Shown in pieces: positions 1-53,239 of a stretch of DNA of 64,000 nt. Under the pieces are notes generated by a model. That model searched no databases, was not told where the DNA came from, and saw only the letters and a program-made list of their open reading frames with translations. The position numbers were made by a program, and so were the translations under genes. The DNA is from an uncultured bacterium (GTDB taxonomy: Bacteria > Abyssobacteria > SURF-5 > CBDUXP01). The first letter of the stretch is position 1. Each line of letters begins with the position of its first letter. Location: contig CBDUXP010000001.1 in NCBI GenBank assembly GCA_965371225.1, positions 71,883 through 135,882 of the forward strand, in the 5' to 3' direction.

Positions 1-2516
1 GGAAACGGGAATGTCTCAAAACATGTAGTTGGTGTATAGCGAAAACCACTTTCCCGTTCCCGCAATTGGGTTCCTTGCGCACGCGCCCACACCTCATGCA
101 ATCGTGAATGCAGCACACCAAAGAAGTAGTCGTCGGACCGGGCGAAAGCTATCGTCGCCGAGTCGGGGAGTGTAGGACAATCTATTCGCACGAAAAGCCG
201 ATGTTTGGACACCCTGGGAGTACAGGTGTAGCGCTGGAATCCTAGGATTGCTGTTCGCAGCTCGCTGCGTGGCCTTGTGTGCTGCCACCATCTCTTACCA
301 CCGTGTTCACGAGCTGTAACCTGTCTACTGCCTTTTACTTTTGTTCGAAGATACTCAAAAGGGGCCTGGTACCTCGCCGCATCGGCGGACGGCATACCAA
401 CTCCAAAGTCTACGATGAAGAAGTTACGTCCCCGGGAGGTTATGTCTTTCCCGTTGACCCAAGGAACAACAACGTTAGAATTCGGAATCAGATGAGGATT
501 AGGCGCAACAAGGAAGTCAACTGCCGTTTCGAATGGAACGTCAAAAGCGCCCCCTTTCGTAGTTCCCATAAATGCGATGTCGGCAGTGGCGCTCAGCGTT
601 TGTGACTTTGTAACATCGGCAAGTGCAGTAAGGTTTGCGTTGATAGTGGCAACACTCTTGCCGTCCAACAGTCTCTCTTTTTCGCTTCCCGAATCAATGC
701 CGACCATGGACACATGAACATTTGCGCCATCCAGGATCCATGGACGATCACTCTCAGCGAAGAAGATGTTTCCTGTCTCCCTAATGCGTTTTAGTGTTTC
801 GCGACTGGCGCCGCCGCGCACCCCTTGCGTAGCCAGCAGACCTGCCCGTTTCGCCAGTCCCCGCTCAATATTGTTCCGCGCACGCTCCAACCAATAGCAG
901 CACAGGTCAGCTTCCGGGCGAACACGATCCCCCCATTGCCCGAGTAACGCATCGACGTACGCGTCCCCCAACTCCGAGCGCAGCTTCTTCCCCCCTAAGA
1001 ACGGGGGATTTCCCACGACGTAGTCGACGGCGGGCCACTCGGGTTCCTTGGGATTGTCGCGATCGGACAGGTCGAGGATGGCGTCTTTGCACTGGAAGTT
1101 CTCGGGCATCTTGCGCAGGAGGGGGGTCTCGAAGTTGCCGTAGCCGTTGGCGATGGTCCATTGAAGAAACCCGATCCACACAGTCATCTGCGCCAGTTCG
1201 CACGCGTATTCATTGATCTCGATGCCGTAGAGCTGCCACGGTCCCACGCGTGGATACAGGCCCCCGATGCCGTGATTATCCGCAAAGATGCAAACTTCCT
1301 TCTCCAAATCCTTGAGTTTCTGGAGTGACACATAGAGGAAGTTTCCCGACCCGCACGCGGGATCTAATACCTTCACCTTTCCCAAACGGTCGAGAAATCC
1401 AGTCAACGGGCCCGCCGCCTCAGCCTGCCACTTCTGCAAATCCCTGGGTCGTGGGCGCCCCTTCCCTTCCTTTTCGCGTTTTTCCAAACGCTCGTGCAAC
1501 CTTTCGACATTGCCTCGAGCCTCTCCGCGCACTTGCTCCCATTCCCGGCGCAAGGGCCACATGACCACGGGCTCCACTAGAGTCTCGATGTCCTCGCGGC
1601 TGGTGTAGTGAGCGCCAATCTGCGAGCGTTTGTCCGGGTCCATCCCGCGCTCAAACAGGGTGCCGAAGATCGACGCGTCCACGGCACTCCAATCCAGCTT
1701 GGCTGCCGCGTGAATGGCCGTGATCTCTTCCGGCGTCAACTCCAACACCGGACTGCCACTGAACAGGTCGCCATTGAAGTGTTTGATCTCCTCCGGTCCA
1801 AAGTCGCCGCCGTCCGCCATGGCCGAGAAGAGGCGCTCCACCTGTCGCTTGAACCGGGGAGGGTCGCCCTTGGCCTTATTCACCACCTCGGTGAACAGCC
1901 CCTTGGGCAGCAGCCCCACATCCTCGGCGAACAGGCAGAACACGATCCGGTCCAGAAAGCGCGCGACCTCGTGCGCGTCCAGGCCCCGCCCACGGAGCCC
2001 TTGGGCGATATCCCCAAGCCGCCGCGCCGCCTCCTCGGTGACCTCCGCGCTGGTGGTGCCCGGCCGCAGCTTCCCGGGTTCGTGGAACAGCGCGTGAAGG
2101 ACCTCCAGGTTCTGGGGTTCGCCCAATGCTTCCAGCGGAATGTCATAGGTGCGCCCGACGGTGGCGGTGAAATTCGTATGGACCACGATGCGGTCCATGT
2201 CGCTGACTACCAACAGAGGTGGGTTTTCCAGGGCTTCGCGGTACTGCCGCAGTTGTCTGTAGGCCTCGTCCAGGTCCTTATGCGGACCCTTGTACTCCCA
2301 GCCGAAACAGCCCTTTTTCCAAACGTCGGCCCAACCACCTCCACCGTCTTCTTTCGTGACCCCTTTCTCGAAGGTGAACTCGTCGCCCGTGGTATCGACC
2401 GCGGCGGGGGAGGGATGGTCCACCAACGCGCAGAGGTCCATGAAGTGCTCGTGCGACGCCGAGCGTTCGCTAAGCGTGTTGCCCCCCCACTTGGCGATGA
2501 ATTCGGAGGGGGTCAT
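1..2516 (-). CDS. MmeI-family type IIL restriction-modification enzyme (endonuclease + N6-adenine DNA methyltransferase + target-recognition domain in one polypeptide). Partial: the C-terminal target-recognition region runs off the left window edge.
   Basis: The minus-strand translation begins MTPSEFIAKWGGNTLSERSASHEHFMDLCALV. A GWEYKGPHKDLDEAYRQL segment matches the MmeI N-terminal PD-ExK region (MmeI: EMKSRGKDLDKAYDQAL). GAHYTS, MTase motif I DPACGSGNFLYV (around 1350) and motif IV NPPF are present. The frame is open to position 1. Candidate in-frame ATG starts lie at 2516, 2540 and 2564. The gene is absent from the ORF track because it has no stop inside the window. Confidence 0.75.
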   Translation of the reverse strand, partial: MTPSEFIAKWGGNTLSERSASHEHFMDLCALVDHPSPAAVDTTGDEFTFEKGVTKEDGGGGWADVWKKGCFGWEYKGPHKDLDEAYRQLRQYREALENPPLLVVSDMDRIVVHTNFTATVGRTYDIPLEALGEPQNLEVLHALFHEPGKLRPGTTSAEVTEEAARRLGDIAQGLRGRGLDAHEVARFLDRIVFCLFAEDVGLLPKGLFTEVVNKAKGDPPRFKRQVERLFSAMADGGDFGPEEIKHFNGDLFSGSPVLELTPEEITAIHAAAKLDWSAVDASIFGTLFERGMDPDKRSQIGAHYTSREDIETLVEPVVMWPLRREWEQVRGEARGNVERLHERLEKREKEGKGRPRPRDLQKWQAEAAGPLTGFLDRLGKVKVLDPACGSGNFLYVSLQKLKDLEKEVCIFADNHGIGGLYPRVGPWQLYGIEINEYACELAQMTVWIGFLQWTIANGYGNFETPLLRKMPENFQCKDAILDLSDRDNPKEPEWPAVDYVVGNPPFLGGKKLRSELGDAYVDALLGQWGDRVRPEADLCCYWLERARNNIERGLAKRAGLLATQGVRGGASRETLKRIRETGNIFFAESDRPWILDGANVHVSMVGIDSGSEKERLLDGKSVATINANLTALADVTKSQTLSATADIAFMGTTKGGAFDVPFETAVDFLVAPNPHLIPNSNVVVPWVNGKDITSRGRNFFIVDFGVGMPSADAARYQAPFEYLRTKVKGSRQVTAREHGGKRWWQHTRPRSELRTAILGFQRYTCTPRVSKHRLFVRIDCPTLPDSATIAFARSDDYFFGVLHSRLHEVWARAQGTQLRERESGFRYTPTTCFETFPF

Positions 2517-7158: not shown

Positions 7159-7776
7159 CTAGCTGTCGAGTTCGGCGGCGGCGCCCAGCAGCGTCTGCGT
7201 TTGATTCGGCATGACGCTGCCGCCTTCCAGGTACTTGAACCGGATCGTGCGCGTCGCATCGACCAGGAAGTACCCGCGCTTGGCTACGCCGCTGGCGCCG
7301 ATGCCGAGGAACACGTCATACGCCTTCGCGACGGCGGCGTCGGCGTCCGCCAACAGGGTTACGTCGGGGCTGTTCTCCGCGGCGAACCTCGCGTGAGATT
7401 CCACGGAGTCGAGGCTGATGCCCAGGATTTTGATGCCCGCGGCGGTGAACTGGTCGATGTTTTGCTGAAACTCAGCAAACTCCGCCGTTCACCCAGCGGT
7501 GAAGTCTTTCGGATAGAACGCGACGATGGCGCCCCGATGGTCGGCCAAGACCTCGGACAGGGTCACGGCGGTGCCGGTCTGGTCTTGCAGCGTGAAGTCC
7601 GGGGCGGTTTCGCCCACCTGCAGCTTCGTGTCGCGCGCCATCGAGTGGCGGGCGAAACCCACCAGCGCGATCACCACGACGACGAAGGTGGCGACGATCA
7701 GGAGCGCGATGCGCATGACCGAACGCTTGGCTGGTGGTGACGGGTTTTCAGCGGCTTCGGTCACGATCCCCTCCAT
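7159..7776 (-). CDS. Bcp/PrxQ-type peroxiredoxin, predicted selenoprotein. An in-frame TGA at 7489..7491 (minus strand) replaces the peroxidatic Cys.
   Basis: ORFs 7489..7776 and 7159..7404 are in the same frame, separated by a single TGA. The joined sequence reads ...AIVAFYPKDFTAG-U-TAEFAEFQQNIDQFTAAGIKILGISLDSVESHARFAAENSPDVTLLADADAAVAKAYDVFLGIGASGVAKRGYFLVDATRTIRFKYL. This aligns with Bcp FYPKDDTPGCTTEAC...VLGVSPDSVESH..., with U at the catalytic Cys. N-terminus (MRIALLIVATFVVVVIALVGF) is a membrane anchor or signal. A SECIS-like hairpin lies 9 nt downstream of the UGA. Confidence 0.6.
7461..7479 (-). promoter_or_regulatory. Candidate bacterial SECIS hairpin for the Sec-peroxiredoxin
   Basis: mRNA reads UGA ACGGCGGAG UUUGCUGA-GUU-UCAGCAAA. 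This is a perfect 8-bp stem beginning 9 nt after the UGA, with an apical GUU inside a GAGUU context shared with the two redoxin hairpins. Confidence 0.45.
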
Positions 7777-35228: not shown

Positions 35229-37763
35229 CTAGGGGTCGATGCCGTACACCTGCAAGTGCGTGAATCGCGTCACGAAGGTGCTGGTCCCCGCGCGCTCCCG
35301 AAAGTGCACCAGGCGCACCCCGGTGAGCGTCACCGGATCCGTCCCGGCGCGTGCCCAGTCCGCGGCGAGCGGCAAGGTCACCGTGCGCCACGCGCCCGGC
35401 TCGCCTGCGAGGAGGCCGGCCCGCTCGATGAGCGGCACCGGCTGGGCCTGTCCCGCAGGCCAGGAGCCGACGGCGCCGCCCGTGCTGTAGAGCAGGTACG
35501 CCAGGGGCGGGCGCGCCGTCCCCTCCACTTCGATCCAGCAGGCCAGCACCCCGCCCGGTGGCACGCGGTCGCTCTCCACCTGCACGGTCACCTCGAGCCG
35601 GGCGGCGCCGGCCACGGTCAACCCCTTCCGGGACACGTGCGGCGCGCACCGTTGCCATCCGAGGTCGGTGGCACTCGCCAGGACAAGATTCGCGTCCTCG
35701 ACTTCCACCTGCAAGTTGGGCGCGCACTCCGTCGCCACCCGCCAGGGACCGTCCTCCAACACGGGCCCATCAAACGCTTCTTCCCACAGCACAATGGCAG
35801 TCGGCGGGGGCGCGTCGGCGAAGCCCTCGAGCGGCGGCGCGGGGGCCGGCTCTGCAGTCGGCGGGGCAGCTGACGGTTCGGGCGGGGCGGCGGCGAGTGC
35901 GAGCGCCGCGACCGCTTCCCCATGGCGCGCTTGGGCCGCGGCGAACCCCTGCTGTTGCTCCTCCACGTGTTGCTTGGCGAGCGCGATGCGAGCGCGATGG
36001 GTCCTGAGGGAATCGCGGGCCTGGTCTGCCGCGGCCGCGGCCTGCCCGTACGCGCGCTCGAAATGCCGGAGCTCAGTGAACGGAATGCGCATGCGGCCGC
36101 CCTCCGGTAACTGCACTCGCAGGGTTTCCATATCGCTCTCGGCATCCAGAATGCGGCAGACCAACTCCCGCCCGCTGGTGAAGACGACGCGGTCGGGAAA
36201 CTGCAAGCTCGCATCCGGCGGGGCACTGCGCTGTTGCGTCAGGGCAACCTGGGCCGCAGCGTTCGCCTCACGCGCCGCGCGCCATTCGGCGCTCGCGGCC
36301 GCCAGCGTGCGCAACTCAGGCCCGTAGGCGGGGGGCGGCACGGGCGGGAGATACGCGGCGGCGTCTTCCATCAGGGGGGGCATCTCCTCCCTGCGCACGA
36401 AATCCACCTGGTGGTCGAGCTTCCACGTATCGAACACATCCCGCGCCCATGCCCGAGCAATTTGGCGATCCTGGGCCGTGGCCGCGGTGGTCGCCCGGGG
36501 GCGGAGCGGGGTGTCCTCGGCCAGCGCCGAAGCGGGCAGGAACACGGGACCCATGTCCGGGTAGGTCAGGACGGCGCCACCGTCCTGCGCGTGCGCGTCC
36601 GGGGCGGGGAGGATGCCCCCGTTGCGAAGGTGCACGCTCACGCGCGCCTGCGCCGCCCCTATCTCCGCCTGGGCGTCGTACAGGCTCAGCAACCCAGCGA
36701 GTGCTTCCATGTCGGGCACGCGATGCACCACGGGGGGGCGCATCGGCGCGGCGGGCTCTTGCGCGGGGCGCAGCAAGATCAGCGCGAGTGCGGTCGCGGT
36801 GGCGGCCAGCCCCCCGGCTCCCAGCAGCATGGCCCACCGGGTGGTCGCCGGCGTGGGGGCCGGCCGGAGCTGACCCGGTGCCCCGGTGGACTGCACCTCT
36901 TGGGCGGAGCTGCTCGTCGCGTCCCCCTTGACGATGAGGCGCAAGTCCGCGATCACGTCGGCGCAGCTCTGGTAGCGACCTTCGGGCTCCTTGGCGAGCA
37001 TCTTCAACACCACCCGTTCGACCGGGATAGGCACATCCGCGTTCAGTTCGCTTGGCGGACGCGGCTCATCGAACTGATGTTGTTGGAGGGTGACCAACGC
37101 ATCCTTATTGTCGAAGGGCACTCCGCCGGTGAGCATCTCGTAGAACACGATCCCGAGACTGTAAATGTCGCTCTGTGGCGTCGTGGTCTTCCCCGACGCC
37201 TGCTCCGGGGACATGTATTCGGGCGTGCCGACGATGGTGCCCAAAGTGGTCAACCGCTCGGCGGTCCCGTGCAGGGCGATGCCGAAGTCCGTCAATTTCG
37301 CATTGCCCCGCCGGTCAAACAGAATGTTCGCGGGTTTGATATCGCGGTGGATAATGCCGGCTTCATGCGCAGCGTGCAGGCCCCGGCAGACTTGGACGAC
37401 CGAGCGCACGGCATCGGTCACGTTCAGGTGCTGCTTGCGGAAGATCCGGTCGTCCAGCGTCTCGCCTTCGACCAACTCCATGGCATAGTAGTGCGCGCCG
37501 TCCTGCTCGCCGATGTCGTACACCTGGACAATGTTCGGGTGGTTGAGCTGCGCGATGGCGCGCGCCTCGCGCCGGAAGCGGCGGACGAAGGCCTCGTCGA
37601 TGGTGAACTGGGGCGGCAGGAGTTTCAGCGCCACCCGGCGATCCAGCTCCACCTGGCGCGCCAGGTACACCACGCCCATCCCCCCCTTGCCGAGCTCTCC
37701 TTCGATTCGGTAGCCGCCCAGACGTTTGCCGATGAGCGAACTCACGCGCCCAGTGTAGCGCAC
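35229..37763 (-). CDS. Hanks-type Ser/Thr protein kinase with TM segment and large extracytoplasmic domain (kinase 1 of 3)
   Basis: GELGKGGMGVVYLA ... VALKLL ... IIHRDIKPANILF ... DFGIA ... GTPEYMSPEQ. TM helix MLLGAGGLAATATALALILL. ~480-aa C-terminal domain. Confidence 0.8.
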   Translation of the reverse strand: MRYTGRVSSLIGKRLGGYRIEGELGKGGMGVVYLARQVELDRRVALKLLPPQFTIDEAFVRRFRREARAIAQLNHPNIVQVYDIGEQDGAHYYAMELVEGETLDDRIFRKQHLNVTDAVRSVVQVCRGLHAAHEAGIIHRDIKPANILFDRRGNAKLTDFGIALHGTAERLTTLGTIVGTPEYMSPEQASGKTTTPQSDIYSLGIVFYEMLTGGVPFDNKDALVTLQQHQFDEPRPPSELNADVPIPVERVVLKMLAKEPEGRYQSCADVIADLRLIVKGDATSSSAQEVQSTGAPGQLRPAPTPATTRWAMLLGAGGLAATATALALILLRPAQEPAAPMRPPVVHRVPDMEALAGLLSLYDAQAEIGAAQARVSVHLRNGGILPAPDAHAQDGGAVLTYPDMGPVFLPASALAEDTPLRPRATTAATAQDRQIARAWARDVFDTWKLDHQVDFVRREEMPPLMEDAAAYLPPVPPPAYGPELRTLAAASAEWRAAREANAAAQVALTQQRSAPPDASLQFPDRVVFTSGRELVCRILDAESDMETLRVQLPEGGRMRIPFTELRHFERAYGQAAAAADQARDSLRTHRARIALAKQHVEEQQQGFAAAQARHGEAVAALALAAAPPEPSAAPPTAEPAPAPPLEGFADAPPPTAIVLWEEAFDGPVLEDGPWRVATECAPNLQVEVEDANLVLASATDLGWQRCAPHVSRKGLTVAGAARLEVTVQVESDRVPPGGVLACWIEVEGTARPPLAYLLYSTGGAVGSWPAGQAQPVPLIERAGLLAGEPGAWRTVTLPLAADWARAGTDPVTLTGVRLVHFRERAGTSTFVTRFTHLQVYGIDP

Positions 37764-37793
37764 GGGACGGCCGCGGCCCGCGACGCGCGCCGG

Positions 37794-39464
37794 TTACCGA
37801 GGCGGCTTGGTGCTCGCCATCAGGAGGCGGACGGCTTCCTCATACCCGGCCACCGCTGCGGTGGCGTCGTCCCCCGCCTCGCGGGCAGCCTCGACCGCGC
37901 GCCACCGTTTCGCCACCTGCCGTAATTCCGCGCGGCTGCGAATTTCCGGCGGCGGCGGCAGGTCCCGCTGCCCCTGTTCCAACATGCGACGCAGGCCCAA
38001 GAGCGGCAAGCCGCCGCCTTCCAGCATGCCCCCGTGTGCGGGATTGTTGTTTTTCCATTGGATGTAGTACCGCCGCGCCCACGTGTCCCCCTGGCTCTTG
38101 AACGCCGCCGGCGTGTAGGCCTTCAGGGAGCCGGGAGTCACGGCGCTGTCGGGCAGGCGGACCTCGCCGCGCACCCGGGGCACCCGCAACACCACCCCCG
38201 CGTCTTCCCGCCGCCCGTCCGCGCCCGTCAAGATCGCGCCATTGGCCAGCGTCAGCGTCATCGGGGTGCCGCGGGGCTTGGCCAGAAACTTCTCCTGGTA
38301 ACAGTGGCGCTTGGCCGCGTACAACTCGATCATGTAGCTGTGGGCAATCGGAAAGGGGACGGGGCTCTGCTCCAGGGTGGGGACTTCCACCAGTGGCCGG
38401 CTGCACGGGGTCCGGCTCCGATAGACGGCAAGTCCCACGGCGAGCACGGCCACCGCGGCCAAGGGGATGCGATACGGGCGCACGACCTCGACCAAGGCCG
38501 CACCGACCTCGCCGGCGGCGGCGCCGCCACGGCCGACCAGCCGCTGGACGGTGTGCATGGTGGTTGGGCGCGGCACGGCGCCCGTGCCGGTGGGCGGAAC
38601 GGTGACCCCAGCCTGCAGGCCCGTGCCGGTGGTCGGGCTCCCGCCGGTGGCCGTGCGCACGAGGGAGCGCAGGTCCGCCACCACGGCGGCACACGTCGCG
38701 TAGCGGTCCGCCGGGTCCTTCGCCAGCATCTTCAACACCATGCGCTCCAGCGGCGCCGGAATCTCCGGCGCCAAGTCGCTCGGCGCTCGCGGCGCCTCGT
38801 GCTGGTGCTGCTGCAGGATGATCAGCCGGTTCTCGTGTTGGAAGGGGACGGTGCCCGTGAGCATCTCGTAGAACACGATGCCGAGGCTATAGATGTCGCT
38901 CTGGAGCGTGATGGTCTTGGCGCCGGCCTGCTCCGGTGACATGTACTCCGGCGTGCCGATGATGCCCCCGGTGCGCGTGAGCCGTTCAGCGGTCAGGTCC
39001 AGCGCGATGCCAAAGTCCATGACCTTCGGCAGGCCTTCCTTGTCGATGACGATGTTGGCCGGTTTAATATCCCGGTGGATGATCCCGGCCCCGTGCGCCG
39101 CCTGCAGGGCGCGGCACACGTGCGCCACGATGCGCACCGCTTCCTTCCACGACAGGCGCTTCTTCCGGGCGATCCGCTGGTCCAGCGACTCGCCGTCCAC
39201 CAGTTCCATGACGTAGTAGTACGTGCCGTCCTGCTGGCCGCTGTCGTAAATGTGCACGATGCGCGCGTGATTCAGTTGCGCGACCGCGCGCGCCTCCCGC
39301 AGGAAGCGCTGCACGAACGAGGCGTCGTCCGTGAGCGTCTTGGCCAGCACCTTGAGCGCGACCGGCCGGTCCAGATCCACCTGCCGCGCCTTGTAGACGG
39401 TCCCCATCCCGCCGGAGCCGAGTTCCTCCTCGACCACGTACTCGCCGAACTGCTTTCCGATCAT
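37794..39464 (-). CDS. Hanks-type Ser/Thr protein kinase with TM segment and extracytoplasmic domain (kinase 2 of 3)
   Basis: GSGGMGTVYKA ... VALKVL ... IIHRDIKPANIVI ... DFGIAL ... GTPEYMSPEQ. TM helix. ~200-aa C-terminal domain. Confidence 0.8.
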   Translation of the reverse strand: MIGKQFGEYVVEEELGSGGMGTVYKARQVDLDRPVALKVLAKTLTDDASFVQRFLREARAVAQLNHARIVHIYDSGQQDGTYYYVMELVDGESLDQRIARKKRLSWKEAVRIVAHVCRALQAAHGAGIIHRDIKPANIVIDKEGLPKVMDFGIALDLTAERLTRTGGIIGTPEYMSPEQAGAKTITLQSDIYSLGIVFYEMLTGTVPFQHENRLIILQQHQHEAPRAPSDLAPEIPAPLERMVLKMLAKDPADRYATCAAVVADLRSLVRTATGGSPTTGTGLQAGVTVPPTGTGAVPRPTTMHTVQRLVGRGGAAAGEVGAALVEVVRPYRIPLAAVAVLAVGLAVYRSRTPCSRPLVEVPTLEQSPVPFPIAHSYMIELYAAKRHCYQEKFLAKPRGTPMTLTLANGAILTGADGRREDAGVVLRVPRVRGEVRLPDSAVTPGSLKAYTPAAFKSQGDTWARRYYIQWKNNNPAHGGMLEGGGLPLLGLRRMLEQGQRDLPPPPEIRSRAELRQVAKRWRAVEAAREAGDDATAAVAGYEEAVRLLMASTKPPR

Positions 39465-39562
39465 TGCCGCCGTCCTCCCGCCGGACCGTCCGCGATCTCA
39501 GCCGTCGCCGCTCCCCCGGCGACCGCCGATCTCCGAGCCTGCTGAGTGGGGTCTCGCGAGCG

Positions 39563-41452
39563 CTATTGTACCGGGTCGCGCGGTCGGGTCCTGGCCAGCG
39601 CGGCGAGTACCGCCTCCACCGCCGCGTCATACGCGGCCTCCGCCGCGGCCACGCGCTGTTCGGCCGCGTGGATGTCCGCGTCCTGTGCGGCGTCCGGCAC
39701 CGCCGTGTCCTCGCGCGCCCAAGCCGCAGACTGAATTTCAGTGAACCGCAAGCGGGTTTCGTGTCCGTCGGCCTTGCGCACGCGCAGGGAGTCGCGCTGC
39801 TGTTCGAGAATGGTGCACGGGATCACCCGTCCGCTGCCCAGGCGGATGAGGTCTGCGAACGCGTCGGCCGCCGGCCGCGGGGCATCCGGAGGGGGCACGG
39901 CCCGCAGGATGCACTGCACTTCGGCCACCGGAATACGGACCCGCCGCCCGTCGGCGCGCTCCACCCAGAGGGAACTCGGCTTCTCCACCTCGATGCGACA
40001 CTGCACCGCCGGGCCCATGCGCATGATGAGCCGATCCGGATACGTCTGGTGCGTTTCCACCATCATCGTGCCGGCCTCGGTCCGCCGGCCACCGCGCCGC
40101 AGCACCGCCAGGTCCTGGCGTTCGGCGCGCACGGCGGCCCAGCCTTCGGCCAACGCGCGCACCTCCGGTAGCGGTGGCGCGACCGCGGGCGCCGGCAACG
40201 CGGTCGCGGCCTCCGCCAGCAGGGTCGGGATCGAATCGGGGCCGGCCGCCGGTCCATGGTGCGCGACCCACTGCGCGTAGTACGCCCGGGCCCACTGGTC
40301 GCTCTCCGCACGCAGCACGGTATCGTCCAGTCCGAACCCATAGGGTTCCGGGTCGAGCACGGCCAACGGGAGCGCGATCTCCCCCACCTCCGCCACGGTG
40401 AGCAGGGCCTTGTCCCCTTCGAAATGCCCCGCGCTCCCACAGAGTTCCCCCCCATTGCGACAGCAGAGGATCACGCGCCGCTGCCGCGCGGACTCCAATA
40501 GCCGCGTGTAGGCCAGGTCCGTGAGGGCCGCCAGCGGATCGTCCACCGGCGGGGCCGTGTCCGCCGGGGGCCTGAACCCCCTGCCCACCGCACCGGTCGT
40601 GCGCGTGCCGCGGGCGGAACTGCGCTCCCCGTGCCCCTTCGCCACCGCCCGCAGGTCGGCCACCACCTCCGCGCACGTGGCGTATCGCTCCGCGGGCGCC
40701 TTAGCGAGCATCTGGAGCACGATCTCCTCGATCCCCACGGGAATCTCCGGCACCAGCGTGCGCGGCGCTGCCGGCTCGTCCCACTGGTGCTGTTGCAAGA
40801 GTACGAGCAGGTCGGGATGATCAAAGGGCAGGGCCCCGGTCAGCAACTCGTAGAACACCACGCCCAAGGAATACACATCGCTCGCGGGCGTCGCCTGCCG
40901 GCCCGCGGCCTGTTCGGGGGACATGAAGGCCGGCGTGCCCACGAGGGTGCCGCTCGAGGTGAGACCGACCTCGTCGGCGTCTTGCTGGCGCGCCACGCCG
41001 AAGTCCATGACCTTGACCCGCCCGTTCGAGTCGAGGGCCAAGTTTTCGGGCTTGAGATCGCGATGCACGACTCCCGCCTCGTGCGCGGCGTGGACGCCCT
41101 GACAGGCTTGGGCCATCACGCGCAGGGCGCTGCGTGGGGAAAAGCGCCCATCCCGCTCCAAGCGTTCCTTGATCGTGCGGTCGTTCACCAATTCCATGGC
41201 GAAGTAGTGGGCGCGCTCATGTTCGCCGATGCCGAGGATGCGCACGATGTTCGGGTGGTTGAGTTTCGCGATCCCGCGCGCTTCGCGGCGGAAGCGCTCA
41301 ATGAACGTCGCGTCATCGGAGAGATGCGCGTGCAGGACTTTGACGGCCACCGGCCGGTCCAGACTGACCTGGCGCGCCTGGTAGACCGTGCCCATTGCTC
41401 CGCGGCCCAGCTCCCGTTCCACGATGAACCCCCCGAGCTGGACGCCGATCAT
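39563..41452 (-). CDS. Hanks-type Ser/Thr protein kinase with extracytoplasmic domain (kinase 3 of 3)
   Basis: GRGAMGTVYQA ... VAVKVL ... VVHRDLKPENLAL ... DFGVA ... GTPAFMSPEQ. ~330-aa C-terminal domain. Confidence 0.8.
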   Translation of the reverse strand: MIGVQLGGFIVERELGRGAMGTVYQARQVSLDRPVAVKVLHAHLSDDATFIERFRREARGIAKLNHPNIVRILGIGEHERAHYFAMELVNDRTIKERLERDGRFSPRSALRVMAQACQGVHAAHEAGVVHRDLKPENLALDSNGRVKVMDFGVARQQDADEVGLTSSGTLVGTPAFMSPEQAAGRQATPASDVYSLGVVFYELLTGALPFDHPDLLVLLQQHQWDEPAAPRTLVPEIPVGIEEIVLQMLAKAPAERYATCAEVVADLRAVAKGHGERSSARGTRTTGAVGRGFRPPADTAPPVDDPLAALTDLAYTRLLESARQRRVILCCRNGGELCGSAGHFEGDKALLTVAEVGEIALPLAVLDPEPYGFGLDDTVLRAESDQWARAYYAQWVAHHGPAAGPDSIPTLLAEAATALPAPAVAPPLPEVRALAEGWAAVRAERQDLAVLRRGGRRTEAGTMMVETHQTYPDRLIMRMGPAVQCRIEVEKPSSLWVERADGRRVRIPVAEVQCILRAVPPPDAPRPAADAFADLIRLGSGRVIPCTILEQQRDSLRVRKADGHETRLRFTEIQSAAWAREDTAVPDAAQDADIHAAEQRVAAAEAAYDAAVEAVLAALARTRPRDPVQ

Positions 41453-41462
41453 CGTGCGCGGC

Positions 41463-42302
41463 TCACGGGGCCGCCGCGTCGGACGGGCCTACGACGTAGC
41501 TCAGCGCCTGCACCGGGTCGCCCCGCGCCACGAGCAGGCGCTCGAGCCGTTTGCGCGCCTTCACCACCAGGACATTGATCCGCTCGGTGACGGCGTCCCC
41601 GTTGGCGCGCACCGCGTCCGCATCCGCCGTCGCGGTACTGACCTGCCCCTTGAGCACCGCGATCTGTCTCGACCGCTCCTCCATTCGCTCCAGGTCCGGC
41701 TCCCGCGGCACCATCATGCGCGCCGTCTCAATCTTCCGGGTGAGGAGTCCGATTTCCTGTTGCAGGACAACGAGTTCCGCCTGGTACGCACGCAACCGGT
41801 CTTCTTTCCCCAGGACGGCCTGATAGGTGGCCGGCGTCATCCAGACCCCGTAGTAAAACTGGTGTCCGGCAGCGGCTTCTTCGCGACTCAGGGTAACGGC
41901 AGCGCGACGTGCGACGGCCTTCGCCGTGATGCGGGCCTCCCGCTCTTCGGGCGTTATCCATTCGCCCTCGTATGCGATCAAGCCGAGGGCCTCCCGCTGC
42001 AAACGTTCCACCTGCGTGCGCCGTTCGCGCGCGCGGGCGCGGGCCCCCTCGGCGGCTCGGGCCGCTTGCCACCGCTTGCGATGCTGCTGGTTCGTCTCCT
42101 CGGGCTCGCGGCTGATGGCGACGACTTTGTGGCGCGGCAGTGAGGCGCGTCCCATCTCGGTTTCGAAGGTCACCCACTCCTCGGTGACCTCGAGAATCAC
42201 GCACTCCTGCGACATGGCGGTGTCGAGATGGATGACGTCCGCGGACGCGGGCCCCGCGCCGGCCAGCAGCCCGATCCAGAGCGCCCAGGGCCCGAGACGC
42301 AT
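41463..42302 (-). CDS. Secreted coiled-coil protein, hypothetical
   Basis: Start trimmed to MRLGPWALWIGLLAGAGPASADV, a signal peptide. The rest is heptad-rich and charged (ERRTQVERLQREAL..., VLQQEIGLLTRKIETARMM). Immediately downstream of kinase 3. Confidence 0.45.
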   Translation of the reverse strand: MRLGPWALWIGLLAGAGPASADVIHLDTAMSQECVILEVTEEWVTFETEMGRASLPRHKVVAISREPEETNQQHRKRWQAARAAEGARARARERRTQVERLQREALGLIAYEGEWITPEEREARITAKAVARRAAVTLSREEAAAGHQFYYGVWMTPATYQAVLGKEDRLRAYQAELVVLQQEIGLLTRKIETARMMVPREPDLERMEERSRQIAVLKGQVSTATADADAVRANGDAVTERINVLVVKARKRLERLLVARGDPVQALSYVVGPSDAAAP

Positions 42303-46185: not shown

Positions 46186-46908
46186 TCACGCCCGCTCCGC
46201 GTGCCATTTGCGGTACGGCTTCACGAGCAGGTAGTACCACACGACCTTGCCGACGCGCAGGGAATCGCGCACGGGGCCGAAATTCGATGCGCGTTCCGCA
46301 TCGGGATTGTAGATCGTGCTGATCGGGGCGCCGATGATCTGGTAGCCGAGACGGGAGGCGACGATCAGGAACGCCGTTTCCGTTTCGTACCGGCCTGCGC
46401 GCAAGTACGGGAGAATCGCTTCCATGGTCTCGCGCGTGAACAGCCGGAACCCCGACTGCGTATCGGAGATCGGCTGGCGACACGCGATGCTGATTAAGTA
46501 CGTGCTGAGCCAGTTGCCAAAGCGCCGGCGGAATTTGATGTCGCTGCGCAACACGTTGCGCGAGCCGATGACCACGCACTTCACCTCGCCCCGGTAGTAC
46601 TGCTGCAGCTTGAAGAGTTCGCGCGGCTGATGCTGGCCGTCCGCATCCAACGTGACCACCATGTCCACGTCGGCGTAGGCGGGGTCCGTGGCGATGGTCC
46701 GGAACGCGGACAGCAGCGCGGCACCCTTGCCCTGGTTTCGCTCGTGCGTGATCACATGGGCGGGTGTTCCGGACAGGACCGCCGCGGTGGCATCGGTCGA
46801 CCCGTCATCCACCACCAGGACCCGGTCCACATACTGGGCGGTTTCTTGAATGATGGGTTCGCACAGGTCGCCCACGTTGTAACACGGGATGACAGCACAT
46901 GTGGCCAT
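46186..46908 (-). CDS. GT2 family glycosyltransferase (polyprenol-phosphate mannose/glucose synthase, Ppm1/DPM1-like)
   Basis: MATCAVIPCYNVGD ... VLVVDDGSTD ... TLDADGQH ... QSGFRLF. Start trimmed to MATCAVIP at 46908. Confidence 0.75.
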   Translation of the reverse strand: MATCAVIPCYNVGDLCEPIIQETAQYVDRVLVVDDGSTDATAAVLSGTPAHVITHERNQGKGAALLSAFRTIATDPAYADVDMVVTLDADGQHQPRELFKLQQYYRGEVKCVVIGSRNVLRSDIKFRRRFGNWLSTYLISIACRQPISDTQSGFRLFTRETMEAILPYLRAGRYETETAFLIVASRLGYQIIGAPISTIYNPDAERASNFGPVRDSLRVGKVVWYYLLVKPYRKWHAERA

Positions 46909-47265
46909 AGTCTGCGGCTCCTCAGTGCGCACACCGCCCAAGAACCGGGGGAGGATCGGCGGCCGGCACAAGCCCGAATTATACCGAAATTGCCGCCTGG
47001 AACGGAGGGCCCTGCCCCCGCGGTAGGGGAAGATGCCCCGAAGCACGGGGGTTCGGCGTCCCGCTGCGCCGCGGCCAGGCCCGGCACAACGCTCACGCGC
47101 AGCAGGACGCAGGCGCCCGCGCGGGACCCATGGGGGCGGGAGTGGGCAGGGGCGTGGCAAAAGTGTGAACCGGCCTACATTAAGCCGGGGCACGCGCCGG
47201 TTTAGACTATCCCGCGTTCAGGGCTCGGCCGGGCCCGCAGCAGACGACCACGGACGGGGGTCACA

Positions 47266-48027
47266 ATGACGGCGACGACGGGATTCTGGTTGGCAGTGCT
47301 CGGTTTCGGATTGGCAGCGGGCAATTGGGCGGTCTACTGGCCCAAGATCAAGGCGATGCGCGTTCCCCTGCGGCCCGTGGGGCACCAGGCGGTCATGGTC
47401 GCGGTGCTGGTGCTCGCGGTCCTCGCGTTCGCCAACGGTCCAGGCCTGCTCGGCGGCATCCTGGCAGGGTTGGCGATCCCGCTGGCGGGCATGTTTCTGT
47501 TCTTCACACTGCGAAGCACCATGCCCAAGAATATTCCGGCGGTGGCGGTCGGGAAGCCGATCCTCGATTTCACCGCAAAGCGGGCGGACGGGCAGGACTT
47601 CGCCCTGGGCTCCCTGCGCGGCGCCCCCTTTCTGCTGAAGTTCTTCCGCGGCCACTGGTGACCGTACTGCGTCGCTGAGTTGCAGCGATGGGAAGCGTTC
47701 AAGGGCCAGTTCGAAGCCAAGGGGGTGCGCATGGTCGCCATCAGCCCGGACACGCACGCGGAGACGGCGGAGGCGGTCGCGAAGCACGGCTTCACGATGA
47801 CGATGCTGAGCGATGAGCCACTCACGGTAGTCGACCAATACAACCTGCGCCACGACCGGGCGATCGCGCCCAAGCCCGGGCGGCCGATGGTGCGGGCGCT
47901 GGCGGTGCCCACTACGTTCCTGGTGGACAGCGCGGGGGTGGTGAAATGGATCGACCAGGCTGAGGATTACCGCGTGCGCTCCGACGCGGACCGCGTGTTG
48001 GCCGCGATCCAGGAACACCTGCCTTGA
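47266..48027 (+). CDS. Membrane-anchored AhpC/TSA-redoxin-family thiol:disulfide oxidoreductase, predicted selenoprotein. UxxC motif with in-frame TGA at 47659..47661.
   Basis: ORFs 47266..47661 and 47680..48027 share a frame and are split only by TGA. The junction reads ...[48 protein letters not shown]..., with Sec where the first Cys of WCPYC belongs. Three N-terminal TM helices. A SECIS-like hairpin begins 8 nt after the UGA. Confidence 0.6.
47670..47690 (+). promoter_or_regulatory. Candidate SECIS hairpin for Sec-redoxin 1
   Basis: CGUCGCUG-AGUUG-CAGCGAUG. 8-bp stem including one G-U pair. Loop AGUUG is identical to that of the paralog. Confidence 0.5.
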
Positions 48028-48860
48028 ACGGGCGCGGGCGCTGCGGCGCCGCACGGCGGGCATTAGTGCTGGCCCTGGTCCTCGCCGGCGGCATGGGCTG
48101 TGGGGGCGATGCCCGGGCCGTCGCGCAACCGGTTCCGGCGGACGTGCCGCGGGTGGCCGTCGGCGATCCGTACATCGACTTCACGGCCCCGGATGCGGAC
48201 GGGAACGCCTTCACCCTGTCCTCGCTTGACGGCACCCCCATCCTGCTGAAGTTCTTCCGCGGCCACTGGTGACCCTACTGCGTCTCCGAGTTGCGGAGTT
48301 GGGAAGAGCTGCGGGGCGACTTCGACGCGCTGGGCATCGCGCGGATCGGAATCAGCTCGGACACGGTGGATCAGGCCGCCGGCATGGCGGAGAAGTACGG
48401 GTTCAGTATCCGGTTGTTGAACGACGCGGACCTGACCGTAACGGACCGCTACAACCTGCGGTACACCGATAACAAGACGCCAATCGCGACCACGTTGTTC
48501 ATCACCGCGGACGGTATCGTACGTTGGATCGACGTGGCGCCCGATTACCGCAAGCGCACGGAAGGCGTACAGGTACTGGCGGCGGTGCGGCGTGCCCTGG
48601 CGACCGGTTCAGAGGCCGCCGAGTCGACCGTAGAACCGGTTGCGACGAGCTTCGGCGTCGTGCTCGTGGATCCGGGCAAGAACAAACTGCAGGTCATCAA
48701 GGCAGTGCGGACGATCACGGGGCTGGGACTGGCTGACGCCAAGGCGCTCGTGGAGGACGCTGCGGAATTCATCCAGCAGGGTCTGACACAGGCGGAAGCG
48801 GACGGGATCGCCGCCCGGCTCGTACAGGCTGGCGCGACGGTCGAGATTCGGCCAGGGTGA
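48024..48860 (+). CDS. Secreted AhpC/TSA-redoxin-family selenoprotein (UxxC, TGA at 48270..48272) fused to a C-terminal ribosomal-protein-bL12 (L7/L12) C-terminal-domain-like module
   Basis: ORFs 48024..48272 and 48291..48860 share a frame and are split only by TGA: ...[48 protein letters not shown]... N-terminal signal peptide ([16 protein letters not shown]). The C-terminal 65 aa, [68 protein letters not shown], aligns closely with E. coli bL12 CTD, [68 protein letters not shown]. Putative TTG start overlaps the stop of the preceding gene. Confidence 0.6.
48284..48298 (+). promoter_or_regulatory. Candidate SECIS hairpin for Sec-redoxin 2
   Basis: CUCCG-AGUUG-CGGAG. Same loop and GAGUUGC context as paralog 1, with compensatory stem changes. 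Confidence 0.5.
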
Positions 48861-48935: not shown

Positions 48936-49012
<77 letters not shown>

Positions 49013-49088: not shown

Positions 49089-50144
49089 ATGTGGGATGAC
49101 TATCTGGAAGTCCCGTTTTCGCCCGAGTGTGTGGATGAATGCCGGGATGCGTGTAGCGCCGCGTTCGAGCTGCAGCGCGAGCACATGCAGATGCTCATGT
49201 CCACCCTCAAGCCGCGGGGGATTGCATGCTTGGGCGCGGGCGTCCTGAATGACATCCCCATCGACAGCTTCATCGTGGGCGGGGCGCAGGTCTACCTGGT
49301 CGATTGGATCCCGGACGTGTCCCGGGAAGGGTTCCGCGGGCGCCTCATCGCTGAAGACGGGGATGGCTACGACTGCCTCTTGTGCGAGGAACGCTGCGCG
49401 TCCGGAAACTTCTGCGCGGCGTTCCAGCCCCCGGTACACCCCGTCCATCGGGTGTGCCACAATTTCGTACTGGCCGAGGGGGCGCATCCGCGATGCGAGA
49501 ACTACGCGCCGGGGCCAGAGCCCCATTTCGTGACGGGGGACGTCACGGGGGGCCGCGCGCAACGGTTTGCGGAATCGCTGCCGGACATCGTGCGCGAAGC
49601 GAAAACCCCCGCCCGGGCGTTCCGCAAAGCCATCAGCCACTGCCAACGCTGCGCCACCGTGAACGAGCGGCTCGATATCGAGGCGGGGTCCCAGGACCTG
49701 GTGACGTCGTCCATGATGGTGTCGCAATTCGAGCACGAGCCCTACACGTTCTTCGCGAAGCTGATGGAGGAACACTTCGGGCGCAAATCGATCGAGGAAA
49801 AGACCGCCGAGTTGACGCCGCTGTTGGAGCAGTTGCGCTCGGACCTGTTCCAAGTGCAGATGGACGGGCATGTGCGGGAACTCTACCGCCTGGTGGACAA
49901 GGACCGTGGGAAGGTGTACTTCTCCGTGGAGCTGTTCCACGCCCGGCCGGCGGACGACAAGTACTTCCTGCTGCACGAGAGCCCCGCGGTCCTGGACACG
50001 CTGAGCAAGTACTTCCACTTCGACTTCTCGTTCATCCCCCCCCAAGAGTCGCTCAAGGAAGTCACCACGGGGCAGCGGCCCTCCATCGTCCAATCGTTCG
50101 TCCTCCATCCCATCGAGAACCTGGAGAAAGCCGCCGCGTTCTGA
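49089..50144 (+). CDS. Hypothetical Cys-rich protein with class-I-methyltransferase-like N-terminal motifs
   Basis: 351 aa. GIACLGAGVLNDIP (GxGxG-like) and VYLVDWIPD (acidic end of beta-2) suggest a Rossmann SAM-binding fold. Cys clusters present (CVDECRDAC; CLLCEERCASGNFC; CHNF...C; CQRC). No confident family assignment. Confidence 0.45.
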   Translation: MWDDYLEVPFSPECVDECRDACSAAFELQREHMQMLMSTLKPRGIACLGAGVLNDIPIDSFIVGGAQVYLVDWIPDVSREGFRGRLIAEDGDGYDCLLCEERCASGNFCAAFQPPVHPVHRVCHNFVLAEGAHPRCENYAPGPEPHFVTGDVTGGRAQRFAESLPDIVREAKTPARAFRKAISHCQRCATVNERLDIEAGSQDLVTSSMMVSQFEHEPYTFFAKLMEEHFGRKSIEEKTAELTPLLEQLRSDLFQVQMDGHVRELYRLVDKDRGKVYFSVELFHARPADDKYFLLHESPAVLDTLSKYFHFDFSFIPPQESLKEVTTGQRPSIVQSFVLHPIENLEKAAAF

Positions 50145-50730: not shown

Positions 50731-50833
50731 CGGGAAGTCCCGCGCATGGCAGGGGTGAACGGGACACGGTAGAGTAGAAGGCGCTGCGGCGTCGCCCGGC
50801 CTGCACCTCCCGGGCGCCGCAGGTGTTCCACTC

Positions 50834-53239
50834 ATGGCCCCCTCGTCCCGGCAGGTCGACCCCGACGATCCAACAGTGGTTTCGTCGCGGGGCACACCGG
50901 CGCAAGACACCACCGTTCGGGGCGACCGGCCCCTCCCACCGGCGGACCAGAGGCCCGATCCGGATGCGACCCTCCCGACGGAGGGCATGTCCGTCGCCAT
51001 GCCGCAGACGGATGAGGACACCCTCGCGAGCCAGGGGTTGTACTCGCGCGGGGAGGAGATTGGCCGCGGGGGCATGGGCCGCGTGTCCATGGCGTGGGAC
51101 CACAACCTCCAACGCTCCGTGGCGGTGAAGGAAATGTTACCCGCACACCAGGGCGTGGCGGAAGCGGGCGAGCGGTTCTTGCGCGAGGCGTTCCTGACCG
51201 GCGGGCTGGAGCATCCCGGCGTGGTGCCCGTCCACCATTTCGGTGTCAACGGCGAGGGCCTGCCCTTCTACACCATGAAGTACATTGCGGGGCAGACGCT
51301 GGAAGAAGCTATCCGCGGGTTGGAGGAACTCCCCGCGCCGGAGGCAGACTACCAGCGCCTCCTCCTGTTGCAGCGTGCACAGCAGGCGTGTCAGGCCATC
51401 GCGTTCGCGCACACGCAGGGCGTGATCCATCGCGACATCAAGCCGAGCAACATCATGCTCGGCGAGTACGGCGAAACGGTCGTGCTGGATTGGGGCGTGG
51501 CCAAGAAGATCGAAGACGCATCGCAAGTGCCCGCACCATGTCCTGACGAGGTCCCACCGCCCCCAGGCAGCGTGCCGACGAGCGGCGCACGGATCCCACC
51601 CCTCCCGGCTGACGAGCAGCCCGCGCCGGCCGCGCCCGCGCACTCGACGCCGCCTTCCTCGGGCGTGAGCGGTGGGCGCGCCCCCATGGGGGGGTCGAGT
51701 ACCCAAGCCGGGGCGGTGATCGGGACGCCGGCGTACATGGCGCCCGAGCAGGCGCGAGGCGACGTGGAGCAGCTGGGTCCGAGCGCGGACGTGTTCAGTC
51801 TGGGCGCCACCCTGTACTGCCTCGTGACGGGCCGGGCGCCGTATGCGGGGATTCCGCCGGACCGCATCCTCGAGGCGGCGCGCACCGCGCAGTTCCCGCG
51901 CCCGAGCGGCCTGGTTCCCACCGTCCCCCGGGCGCTGGAAACGATCATCCTGCGGGCCATGGCGCAGGCACCGGCCGATCGGTACGGCACCGCGTGCGAA
52001 CTCGCGACGGACCTGGAGCGCTTTCTCACCGGCCAACTGGTGGAGGCGCATCAGTACACCCTGTTGGAGAAAGCCGTGAACTGGTATCGGCATCATCGCG
52101 TGGCGGTGTTGACCATGCTGCTGCTGGGGATCGCCACGAACGTGGTGGCGCTGGTGGTCGCGGGCCTGCACCTGACGCAGACGCTCACGGGCACGTTACT
52201 GTGGATCGCGGACGCGCAGGTTCGCCAGAGCCTGGTGTTGACCGAGGAATGGCTCGCGCCCGCTGCGGGCGCGTTGGGGCTCGTGGAAGATGTGGCGCGC
52301 CGCTATGGCACCGACCGGGAGCCGGCCGAGCGCGCGCTCCACCTACTCAAGCAGTCCATCGACAACGTGGAGCTGGTGTACTACGCCATCGACGACAAAC
52401 GGCACCCACCGGTCAACCTGGGGAGTGATCCGACGCGCGAGTTCCCGGCGGACGTGGACACGCGCACCCGCCCGTGGTACACAGGCGCGCTCGCGGCGGA
52501 GGGGGCCGTCGCCATTACCGACCCGTATACGGAAGTGATTACCGGCCTGACGTGCGTGTCCGTATCCCGACACCTGCGGCTGGAAGGCAATCCCCCGGCT
52601 GACCTCGTGGTCGCCGCGGACATCTTTCTGATGCCCATGATCGAGTTCCTGCGGCCGCGCAACTTCCCGCAGGACGGCGCCGCCGTGTTGTTGAGCGCCG
52701 TGGATCCCAGGGCGCCGCACCCCGCACGCTGGCAGACCGCCAAGCCCATCCTGATAGCGAGCACGCTGGACCCGGCCGTGTTCGACGCCCCGATGCTGGT
52801 GACGGGCACGATCGATCCGACGGCGTTCGACACCGCCACGCAAGCGGCGGCGCAGCGCATGGTCGAGGCCATCCGCGCGGGCAGCAGGCGCGACGCCACC
52901 ATCGACGTGCAGGCGCTGCTGCCGAATCTTGGCGAGGCACAGGCCGTGCCCATGACGGTGCACGCGGCCATGCTCGTCGATCTCGCGGGCCGTCCGCACG
53001 CGGTCTTCACCGCCCCGGTCCCGGACGTGCCATGGGAAGTGAGCGTCATCATTCCCATGGCGCTGCTCACCAGTCCATTCGTCGACGCGGGCCGCGTCCT
53101 GCTGCGCACGTCCGGCATCGGGTTGTTGATCGCCCTCCTGGGGTTGCTGCTCTATTACGCGGTGCGTACCCGGCGGGACCGGCGGCTGCCCGCGGTCGGG
53201 TATGCGCCCGCAAGCACACCACCCCACTCCCGCACGTAA
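50834..53239 (+). CDS. Hanks-type Ser/Thr protein kinase with Pro-rich linker, TM helix and extracytoplasmic Cache-like sensor domain
   Basis: Kinase domain: IGRGGMGRVSMA ... AVKEM ... VIHRDIKPSNIML ... DWGVAKK ... GTPAYMAPEQ. TM helix VAVLTMLLLGIATNVVALVVAGL. Ectodomain carries RPWYTGALAAEGAVAITDPYTEVITG (Cache-like R-P-W-Y ... D-P-Y). A second C-terminal TM follows. Confidence 0.75.
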   Translation: MAPSSRQVDPDDPTVVSSRGTPAQDTTVRGDRPLPPADQRPDPDATLPTEGMSVAMPQTDEDTLASQGLYSRGEEIGRGGMGRVSMAWDHNLQRSVAVKEMLPAHQGVAEAGERFLREAFLTGGLEHPGVVPVHHFGVNGEGLPFYTMKYIAGQTLEEAIRGLEELPAPEADYQRLLLLQRAQQACQAIAFAHTQGVIHRDIKPSNIMLGEYGETVVLDWGVAKKIEDASQVPAPCPDEVPPPPGSVPTSGARIPPLPADEQPAPAAPAHSTPPSSGVSGGRAPMGGSSTQAGAVIGTPAYMAPEQARGDVEQLGPSADVFSLGATLYCLVTGRAPYAGIPPDRILEAARTAQFPRPSGLVPTVPRALETIILRAMAQAPADRYGTACELATDLERFLTGQLVEAHQYTLLEKAVNWYRHHRVAVLTMLLLGIATNVVALVVAGLHLTQTLTGTLLWIADAQVRQSLVLTEEWLAPAAGALGLVEDVARRYGTDREPAERALHLLKQSIDNVELVYYAIDDKRHPPVNLGSDPTREFPADVDTRTRPWYTGALAAEGAVAITDPYTEVITGLTCVSVSRHLRLEGNPPADLVVAADIFLMPMIEFLRPRNFPQDGAAVLLSAVDPRAPHPARWQTAKPILIASTLDPAVFDAPMLVTGTIDPTAFDTATQAAAQRMVEAIRAGSRRDATIDVQALLPNLGEAQAVPMTVHAAMLVDLAGRPHAVFTAPVPDVPWEVSVIIPMALLTSPFVDAGRVLLRTSGIGLLIALLGLLLYYAVRTRRDRRLPAVGYAPASTPPHSRT

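Follow-up and report, generated by a model that had tools for sequence, protein, structure and literature searches.

The peroxiredoxin (Prx)-like selenoproteins with a UxxC active site (PF00578) were described by Zhang, Gladyshev and co-workers in 2005-2008 (PMC1088965, PMC1794560, PMC2398784). In the Global Ocean Sampling (GOS) survey, the group named "Prx-like 1" (pfam00578, UxxC) includes 225 selenocysteine (Sec) sequences (PMC2398784), and a "Prx-like thiol:disulfide oxidoreductase" is known in Geobacter, Syntrophus, and other genomes (PMC1794560). A 2026 review lists the Prx-like thiol:disulfide oxidoreductase among the selenoproteins "predicted with high confidence" (PMC13188914). Adjoining selenoprotein genes have also been reported before (PMC2398784). 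Here, two adjacent genes, gene 1 and gene 2, are analyzed in a 64-kb stretch of DNA from an uncultured bacterium of the lineage Abyssobacteria (positions 71,883 to 135,882 of contig CBDUXP010000001.1), hereafter called the window. By PF00578 and the UxxC motif, they are added members of the established Prx-like UxxC family, and it is highly likely that they are genuine selenoprotein genes dependent on a selenocysteine insertion sequence (SECIS). The initial annotation of the window, made from the sequence alone, had read the in-frame TGA of each gene as a Sec codon. This reading is supported by the Sec/Cys column in the protein alignment, by at least 120 loci with TGA at the same site, by covariation in the downstream hairpin, and by an orthologous locus.

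The features of the locus are as follows.

47266 to 48027, plus strand: gene 1, a putative membrane-anchored thiol:disulfide oxidoreductase of the AhpC/TSA family (Prx-like, TlpA/ResA-like), 253 codons including Sec, with the active site U-P-Y-C.

47281 to 47511, plus strand: N-terminal hydrophobic region of gene 1, with three predicted membrane segments (approximately residues 6-82), read by eye from the translation and of presumed orientation.

47659 to 47661, plus strand: putative Sec codon (UGA) of gene 1, in frame, in the column of the first Cys of WCPYC in homologs, kept in the orthologous locus L132.

47670 to 47690, plus strand: candidate SECIS hairpin of gene 1, with an 8-bp stem CGUCGCUG/CAGCGAUG (47670-47677 / 47683-47690) and the loop AGUUG (47678-47682).

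48024 to 48860, plus strand: gene 2, a paralogous Sec redoxin with a signal-peptide-like N-terminus and a C-terminal domain (CTD) similar to that of ribosomal protein bL12.

48270 to 48272, plus strand: putative Sec codon (UGA) of gene 2, in frame, in a column occupied by Cys in homologs, kept in L132.

48281 to 48301, plus strand: candidate SECIS hairpin of gene 2, with the core stem CUCCG/CGGAG (48284-48288 / 48294-48298) and the loop AGUUG (48289-48293), extended by two pairs beyond a U-U mismatch.

Genes 1 and 2 share with Prx-like 1 the AhpC/TSA domain, Sec as the first residue of UxxC, the abundance of Cys homologs, and a bacterial SECIS in the coding sequence just past the UGA. They differ from Prx-like 1 in the three predicted N-terminal membrane segments (gene 1) or the signal-peptide-like N-terminus (gene 2) of their subfamily, in the tandem arrangement of Sec paralogs with overlapping stop and start codons, and in the bL12-CTD on gene 2. 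The start codon TTG of gene 2 overlaps the stop codon TGA of gene 1 (TTGA), and the two genes would constitute a translationally coupled pair of paralogous selenoprotein genes. Their proteins are 43% identical over 202 residues.

Each gene has one in-frame TGA, and both TGAs lie within FFRGHW-TGA-PYC. The initial annotation had placed a single in-frame TGA at the first-Cys position of WCPYC in both genes, and the sequence, the translations, and the alignment agree with it. Past the TGA, the frame is open for 121 codons in gene 1 and for 195 codons in gene 2. Before and after each TGA, the GC content at third codon positions (GC3) is 0.87-0.90. When Cys is put for the stop, the Pfam domain AhpC-TSA extends across the TGA with E-values of 4.6e-27 (gene 1) and 1.1e-25 (gene 2), both over the gathering score. 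The Pfam domain Redoxin also spans the TGA in both genes (E = 6.3e-22 in gene 1). The domains across the TGA, the open frames, and GC3 bear out the earlier observation that the redoxin sequence resumes in frame after the TGA. The open reading frames (ORFs) antisense to the locus, such as 47218-48063 on the minus strand, are high-GC artefacts; it is the plus strand that gives the Pfam matches and the GC3 signal.

A search of 5.8 billion proteins yielded 140 full-length relatives of genes 1 and 2, which have the same N-terminal membrane region and are labelled "peroxiredoxin family protein" by their sources. The three hydrophobic N-terminal segments of gene 1 are also present in Cys homologs. 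Twenty-four sequences were aligned: the two window proteins and 22 full-length Cys-type homologs. In 21 of the 22 homologs, the residue aligned with the U of genes 1 and 2 is the first Cys of FFRGHWCPYC; the remaining one (P0002) has Ser. This is the comparison with the Cys-containing redoxin family that the initial annotation had proposed, and it puts U on the catalytic Cys column. At the nucleotide level, the genomic loci of ten Cys forms (L001-L010) have TGY at the position of the Sec codon.

The scan of genome contigs with a back-translated Cys pattern detected Cys-form relatives only. Metagenome contigs were scanned with TTYMGNGGNCAYTGGTGACCNTAYTGY, which encodes F-R-G-H-W-TGA-P-Y-C, and at least 120 metagenomic loci carrying FRGHW-TGA-PYC were found. 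In all 120 loci listed, the frame is open and redoxin sequence is present on both sides of the TGA. The chance expectation for this motif is ~1e-13 per position, or less than one match overall, as a rough estimate with an assumed collection size. The TGA loci split into several subfamilies, and among the loci listed about 20 (PYCVAELRRWEEL...) group with the window genes. No recurrent operon partner, and so no hint of function, was found among the same-strand neighbors of the family loci, where mostly spurious high-GC antisense ORFs were recovered. In a different Sec subfamily, one metagenome contig (L052) carries two redoxin copies, at 177-611 and 1729-2136, separated by ~1 kb, so the window is not the only place with a local duplication of these genes. 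In a contig from a different organism (L012), a tRNA-SeC gene with the anticodon TCA (822-917, minus strand) is located beside the TGA site (531-557) of a redoxin of a sister subfamily (PYCKAELYALQ).

The apical loop AGUUG starts exactly 16 nt after the UGA in both genes, and the loop context is GAGUUGC in both. The initial annotation had reported this identical loop in the same context, which is confirmed on the sequence. It had also placed the hairpins 8 nt and 13 nt after the UGA of gene 1 and gene 2, respectively. The former distance is correct, whereas the 5-bp stem of gene 2 starts 11 nt after the UGA. In the register of gene 1, gene 2 has an 8-position helix with one U-U mismatch, and the two stems differ by compensatory changes, G-C to U-A and U-A to C-G.

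The comparative analysis of the hairpin was based on the closest subfamily, represented by 23 Sec sequences. In these sequences, the codons past the UGA are nearly frozen as GUC GCC GAG UUR CGG CGA UGG, and 92.9% of the cells of the 8-pair helix are paired. Double changes are observed at three pairs: U-A to C-G or G-C, G-C to U-A, and C-G to U-A. None of 500 column shuffles reached the observed covariation score, and pairing falls to 26-76% when the 3' partner is slid. RNAalifold independently gives the same helix. Several of the compensatory changes also change amino acids: V to T or C occurs with CGA to CGG or CGC, and A to S occurs with R to S. The compensatory R to Q goes with the synonymous change GCC to GCU. 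That compensatory stem changes bring amino-acid substitutions had been noticed between the two paralogs in the initial annotation; the same pattern is seen across the 23-sequence subfamily in the covariation and RNAalifold analyses.

The codons in the helix differ between Sec forms and Cys forms. The Leu codon is UUR in 22 of the 23 Sec forms versus one of the ten Cys forms, which use CUG or CUC. The second Arg codon is CGA in 17 of the 23 Sec forms versus none of the ten Cys forms, so that the pair 11-27 is always broken in the latter. Fisher's exact test gives p = 2.5e-6 for UUR and p = 8.7e-5 for CGA, with sequences that are not phylogenetically independent. The Sec-specific signal consists of the Leu UUR codon, the Arg CGA codon, and the compensatory changes.

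The DnaJ protein encoded in the window has only one close relative, with 76% identity; all others show 57% identity or less. This relative is encoded on a contig that contains the orthologous locus.

ENA ERZ26661914 NODE_9 (L132): kinase, GT87, GT2, gene 1, gene 2, tRNA-Pro, kinase, DnaJ, and hybrid histidine kinase, in this order, syntenic with the window.

L132 retains both TGAs. The SECIS region of gene 1 is identical in L132, and in gene 2 the 5-bp core stem and the AGUUG loop are kept. The start/stop overlap of gene 2 is GTGA in L132. Of the gene 1 codons that differ between the window and L132, synonymous changes make up 32 of 73 on the upstream side of the TGA and 25 of 64 on the downstream side; the corresponding counts for gene 2 are 23 of 54 and 35 of 69. 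These synonymous changes on both sides of the TGA indicate that purifying selection acts in one and the same frame on the two halves of each gene. From the subfamily, a covariance model (R1) was built, with the L132 sites outside the training set, and it detects the two L132 sites with E-values of 8.6e-17 and 2e-10. The application of a covariance model to the hairpins had been suggested in the initial annotation, and R1 matches gene 1 of the window as well as the L132 sites. The same annotation had named, as evidence that would speak against Sec, true stops without a conserved hairpin in orthologous loci; the ortholog keeps both TGAs and both hairpins. The tandem Sec/Sec pair was therefore in place before the two organisms diverged.

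Another such gene in the window, ~40 kb from genes 1 and 2, was located by scanning for in-frame TGAs flanked on either side by coding-like GC3.

7159 to 7776, minus strand: gene 3, a putative membrane-anchored peroxiredoxin of the BCP/PrxQ type with FYPKDFTAG-U-TAEF (TxxU) and the UGA at 7491-7489.

7461 to 7479, minus strand: candidate SECIS hairpin of gene 3, with a 7-bp stem UUUGCUG/CAGCAAA and the loop AGUUU, which starts 16 nt after the UGA.

Gene 3 matches Pfam AhpC-TSA with an E-value of 2.7e-33 and BCP of known structure (PDB 2cx3) with an E-value of 1.9e-18, where U falls on the peroxidatic Cys. It belongs to the known Sec-Prx (TxxU)/BCP/PrxQ type, in which Sec is at the peroxidatic position. 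The hairpin has a fold energy of -8.8 kcal/mol (z = -3.3), and model R1 gives a weak partial match to it (10.6 bits, E = 0.31). Two further candidates of the GC3 scan were rejected. The TGA at 46186 (minus strand) is an ordinary stop between GT2 and GT87 genes, and the one at 35871 (plus strand) is in a non-coding-like frame.

Both strands of the window were scanned for the pattern of TGA, 13-21 nt, a stem of at least 5 bp, and an AGTTN loop. There are exactly three matches, all with a spacing of 16 and all at in-frame TGAs of AhpC/TSA ORFs, while the mean for shuffled sequences is 0.18. The published consensus of bacterial SECIS has a loop of 3-9 nt, an upper stem of 4-16 bp, G at loop position 1 or 2, a UGA-to-loop distance of 16-37 nt, and a minimum free energy (MFE) of -7.5 kcal/mol or lower (PMC13188914). 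All three window hairpins, with stems of 8, 5 (+2), and 7 bp, agree with this consensus, gene 2 being borderline on energy. They share with the E. coli fdhF-type SECIS (bSECISearch consensus) the position in the ORF directly 3' of the UGA, and G then U at loop positions 2 and 3. Their spacing is at the lower bound of 16-37 nt. In contrast to the fdhF type, the helix is shorter (5-8 bp) and there is no conserved bulged U. A working SelB/Sec machinery in the organism is indirectly supported, as the three recoded genes share the loop type and the spacing.

Several observations weigh against Sec insertion at genes 1 and 2. The initial annotation had proposed folding both hairpins; the result is favorable for gene 1 (-12.7 kcal/mol, z = -2.6), while the hairpin of gene 2 alone is marginal (-7.6 kcal/mol, z = -0.7). 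In stretches of 52 and 91 nt, MFE folding gave weak z-scores and a structure other than the gene 2 hairpin, which was recovered only by the fixed-register and comparative analyses. The Rfam search of the whole window at the gathering threshold matched no SECIS family, only tRNA-Pro and chance-level matches, and no SECIS family was matched at E-values up to 10 over 47600-48400. One TGA-containing member of the subfamily (L107) is without the consensus helix (GUG GCC GAG CUU AAA CGC; 3 of 8 pairs). Its fold is another small hairpin, and L107 may have an alternative SECIS or be a decaying gene. No SelA, SelB, or SelD domain was detected by Pfam in the Pfam-scannable ORFs of the window, and no selC is present there, tRNA-Pro being the only tRNA; the tRNA and Pfam scans are consistent with the initial annotation, which had seen no selA, selB, selC, or selD in the window. 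The observed absence of Sec machinery in the window, together with the functional adequacy of Cys at this site, would fit the translation of UGA as another amino acid, either by near-cognate decoding as Cys or Trp or under a reassigned code. Such translation is very unlikely. TGA is the ordinary stop in 12 of the 29 Pfam-supported ORFs of the window, including genes 1 and 2 themselves, so that a reassigned code is excluded. The structured element, the Sec-specific codons, the compensatory changes, and the fixed 16-nt spacing also argue against it, since a structured element at a fixed spacing is a need of SelB-dependent recoding, not of plain read-through. In addition, the redoxin family is a published selenoprotein family. 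It is extremely unlikely that the TGAs are true stops in pseudogenes or between separate short proteins. Gene callers do split the genes; only the 189-aa downstream ORF of gene 2 (P0121) is in the database, and the L132 locus is called as four fragments. However, at least 120 loci have TGA in this catalytic column and an open frame to either side of it, and the TGAs are kept in the L132 ortholog with many synonymous changes on both sides. The fragments would cut the thioredoxin fold at the active site, and the Pfam domains span the TGAs. The source of the window is a single metagenome-derived contig, in which TGC or TGT could have been changed to TGA by sequencing or assembly errors, but three such sites are present in one window, the same sites are found in the independent assembly of a related organism (L132), and the motif is present in no fewer than 120 other loci. 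The chance of such errors is practically negligible.

Another point against a SECIS is that the helix is partly not specific to Sec. The Cys forms pair 5-7 of the 8 positions because the coding sequence of AELRR is a partial palindrome, and they fold to -7.5 to -13 kcal/mol in the same stretch, with the exception of L010 (-0.1 kcal/mol). The hairpin could accordingly be a by-product of coding C-V-A-E-L-R/Q-R-W without any role as RNA, and Sec insertion, if any, would occur by other means. There is a very small chance that this is the whole explanation. The Sec forms fix UUR Leu and CGA Arg codons, which are otherwise rare and are avoided by the Cys forms. At three pairs, amino-acid changes are accompanied by compensation on the other side of the stem. 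In gene 3, a stem that is not homologous comes with the same type of loop and an equal spacing. The hairpin is thus in part a by-product of coding, which is sharpened in the Sec forms. Such a "proto-hairpin" or "proto-SECIS" in Cys forms may have eased the switch from Cys to Sec in the redoxin family.

If genes 1 and 2 are SECIS-dependent selenoprotein genes, the known bacterial mechanism of Sec insertion would apply to them. Dependence on SelB, the incorporation of selenium, the substrates, and the membrane topology are what we infer for the two products. With the ribosome at the UGA, the adjoining 3' part of the mRNA would fold into the short hairpin, its apical loop A-G-U-U-G starting 16 nt past the UGA. 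SelB-GTP with Sec-tRNA(Sec) would bind the hairpin and, in place of release factor 2, bring Sec to the A site. The N-terminal nucleophile of the CxxC site would then be Sec (U-P-Y-C), which is expected to cycle between the selenol/thiol and the selenenylsulfide. The product of gene 1 is likely to be held in the membrane by its three N-terminal hydrophobic segments. The N-terminus of gene 2, read by eye, is similar to a signal peptide or that of a lipoprotein, through which the product would probably be exported.

Standard gene callers break the three genes into truncated ORFs, both here and in the relative; the pieces should be merged and annotated as selenoproteins. The three genes suggest that a poorly sampled high-GC lineage uses Sec in membrane-associated thiol redox enzymes. 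The three SECIS elements have a common loop AGUU(N) and a fixed 16-nt spacing, and the compensation in the stem drags amino-acid substitutions along. What is known of Sec decoding itself is not changed by the window genes.

The structure-characterized proteins nearest to genes 1 and 2 are of the thioredoxin family, ResA and TlpA (W-C-x-x-C), and U falls on their first, nucleophilic Cys. Genes 1 and 2 are similar to TlpA/ResA/CcmG (DsbE) in the thioredoxin fold, the W-C-x-x-C site, and the predicted membrane-anchored or exported location. The relationship is only distant (E-values of 6e-7 to 1e-3 against PDB); Cys is replaced by Sec in genes 1 and 2, and there are no cytochrome c maturation genes near them. 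Membership in the ResA, TlpA, or DsbE families was rejected, as the NCBIfam scores are 48 and 41.7 bits for ResA (cut-off 170), 26 for TlpA (cut-off 230), and 24 for DsbE (cut-off 359). No NCBIfam model scores above the cut-off for gene 1, 2, or 3. The Pfam family is shared with Sec-Prx/BCP, and the Sec of genes 1 and 2 is located three residues upstream of that in Sec-Prx/BCP. In the alignment to gene 3 and BCP, FFRGHWUPYC of genes 1 and 2 corresponds to FYPKDFTAGU, where U is on the catalytic Thr and the second Cys is on the peroxidatic position. At the Pro and Thr positions of the canonical peroxiredoxin motif PxxxTxxC, genes 1 and 2 have Arg and Sec, respectively. Because U is on the Thr position, genes 1 and 2 are CxxC-type AhpC/TSA redoxins, not true peroxiredoxins.

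Gene 2 carries an additional module at its C-terminus.

48651 to 48848, plus strand: bL12 (L7/L12) CTD-like module, residues 210-275 of gene 2 (Pfam PF00542, E = 5.4e-22, 66 of 67 profile positions).

The module aligns end to end with bL12 C-terminal domains in PDB (E = 4e-13) and keeps VIKAVRxxTGLGLxxAKxLVE. The protein is not ribosomal protein bL12 itself; it has no N-terminal domain for dimerisation and bL10 binding, and the score against TIGR00855 is 71 bits, with a cut-off of 84.4. The exhaustive phmmer search with the module gave 7081 matches. Nearly all of the best 150 of these 7081 are non-ribosomal proteins that have the L12-CTD in 2-21 tandem copies; some of them also carry LRV/HEAT repeats or a KAP NTPase. 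Among the phmmer matches listed and the family loci, redoxin and L12-CTD are joined only in the window protein, and no L12-CTD was detected by tblastn in any of the family loci retrieved. The fusion of redoxin and bL12-CTD is the one element without precedent in the databases searched. The L132 ortholog of gene 2 ends right after the redoxin domain, without the module; the module is therefore considered to be a recent addition just upstream of the tRNA-Pro promoter. The single-sequence AlphaFold model of the bL12-CTD region has a predicted local distance difference test (pLDDT) score of 58 and was not used for fold search. The literature search on non-ribosomal L12-CTD proteins found nothing relevant.

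The bL12 C-terminal domain is a ribosomal module that recruits translational GTPases. There is a slight chance that the module of gene 2 is functional and might dock the selenoprotein, or a pool of it, onto a translational GTPase (SelB or EF-Tu, for example) or another partner, and, on a wider scale, that the thousands of non-ribosomal multi-copy L12-CTD proteins could be an unrecognised system of interaction modules. If so, docking would link a selenoprotein to the binding of translation factors. If the product of gene 2 is exported, its bL12-CTD would lie outside the cytoplasm.

Just past tRNA-Pro (48936-49012), a 351-aa ORF (49089-50144, plus strand) shows a strong coding signal (GC3 of 0.85) and no Pfam match. 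It is absent from the syntenic L132, where the kinase gene directly follows tRNA-Pro, and it may be a small insertion beside the tRNA. Within 18 kb around the locus, there are four genes for Ser/Thr protein kinases (35229-41488, minus strand; 50759-53239, plus strand). The source lineage appears to be poorly sampled and kinase-rich, with 68% GC.

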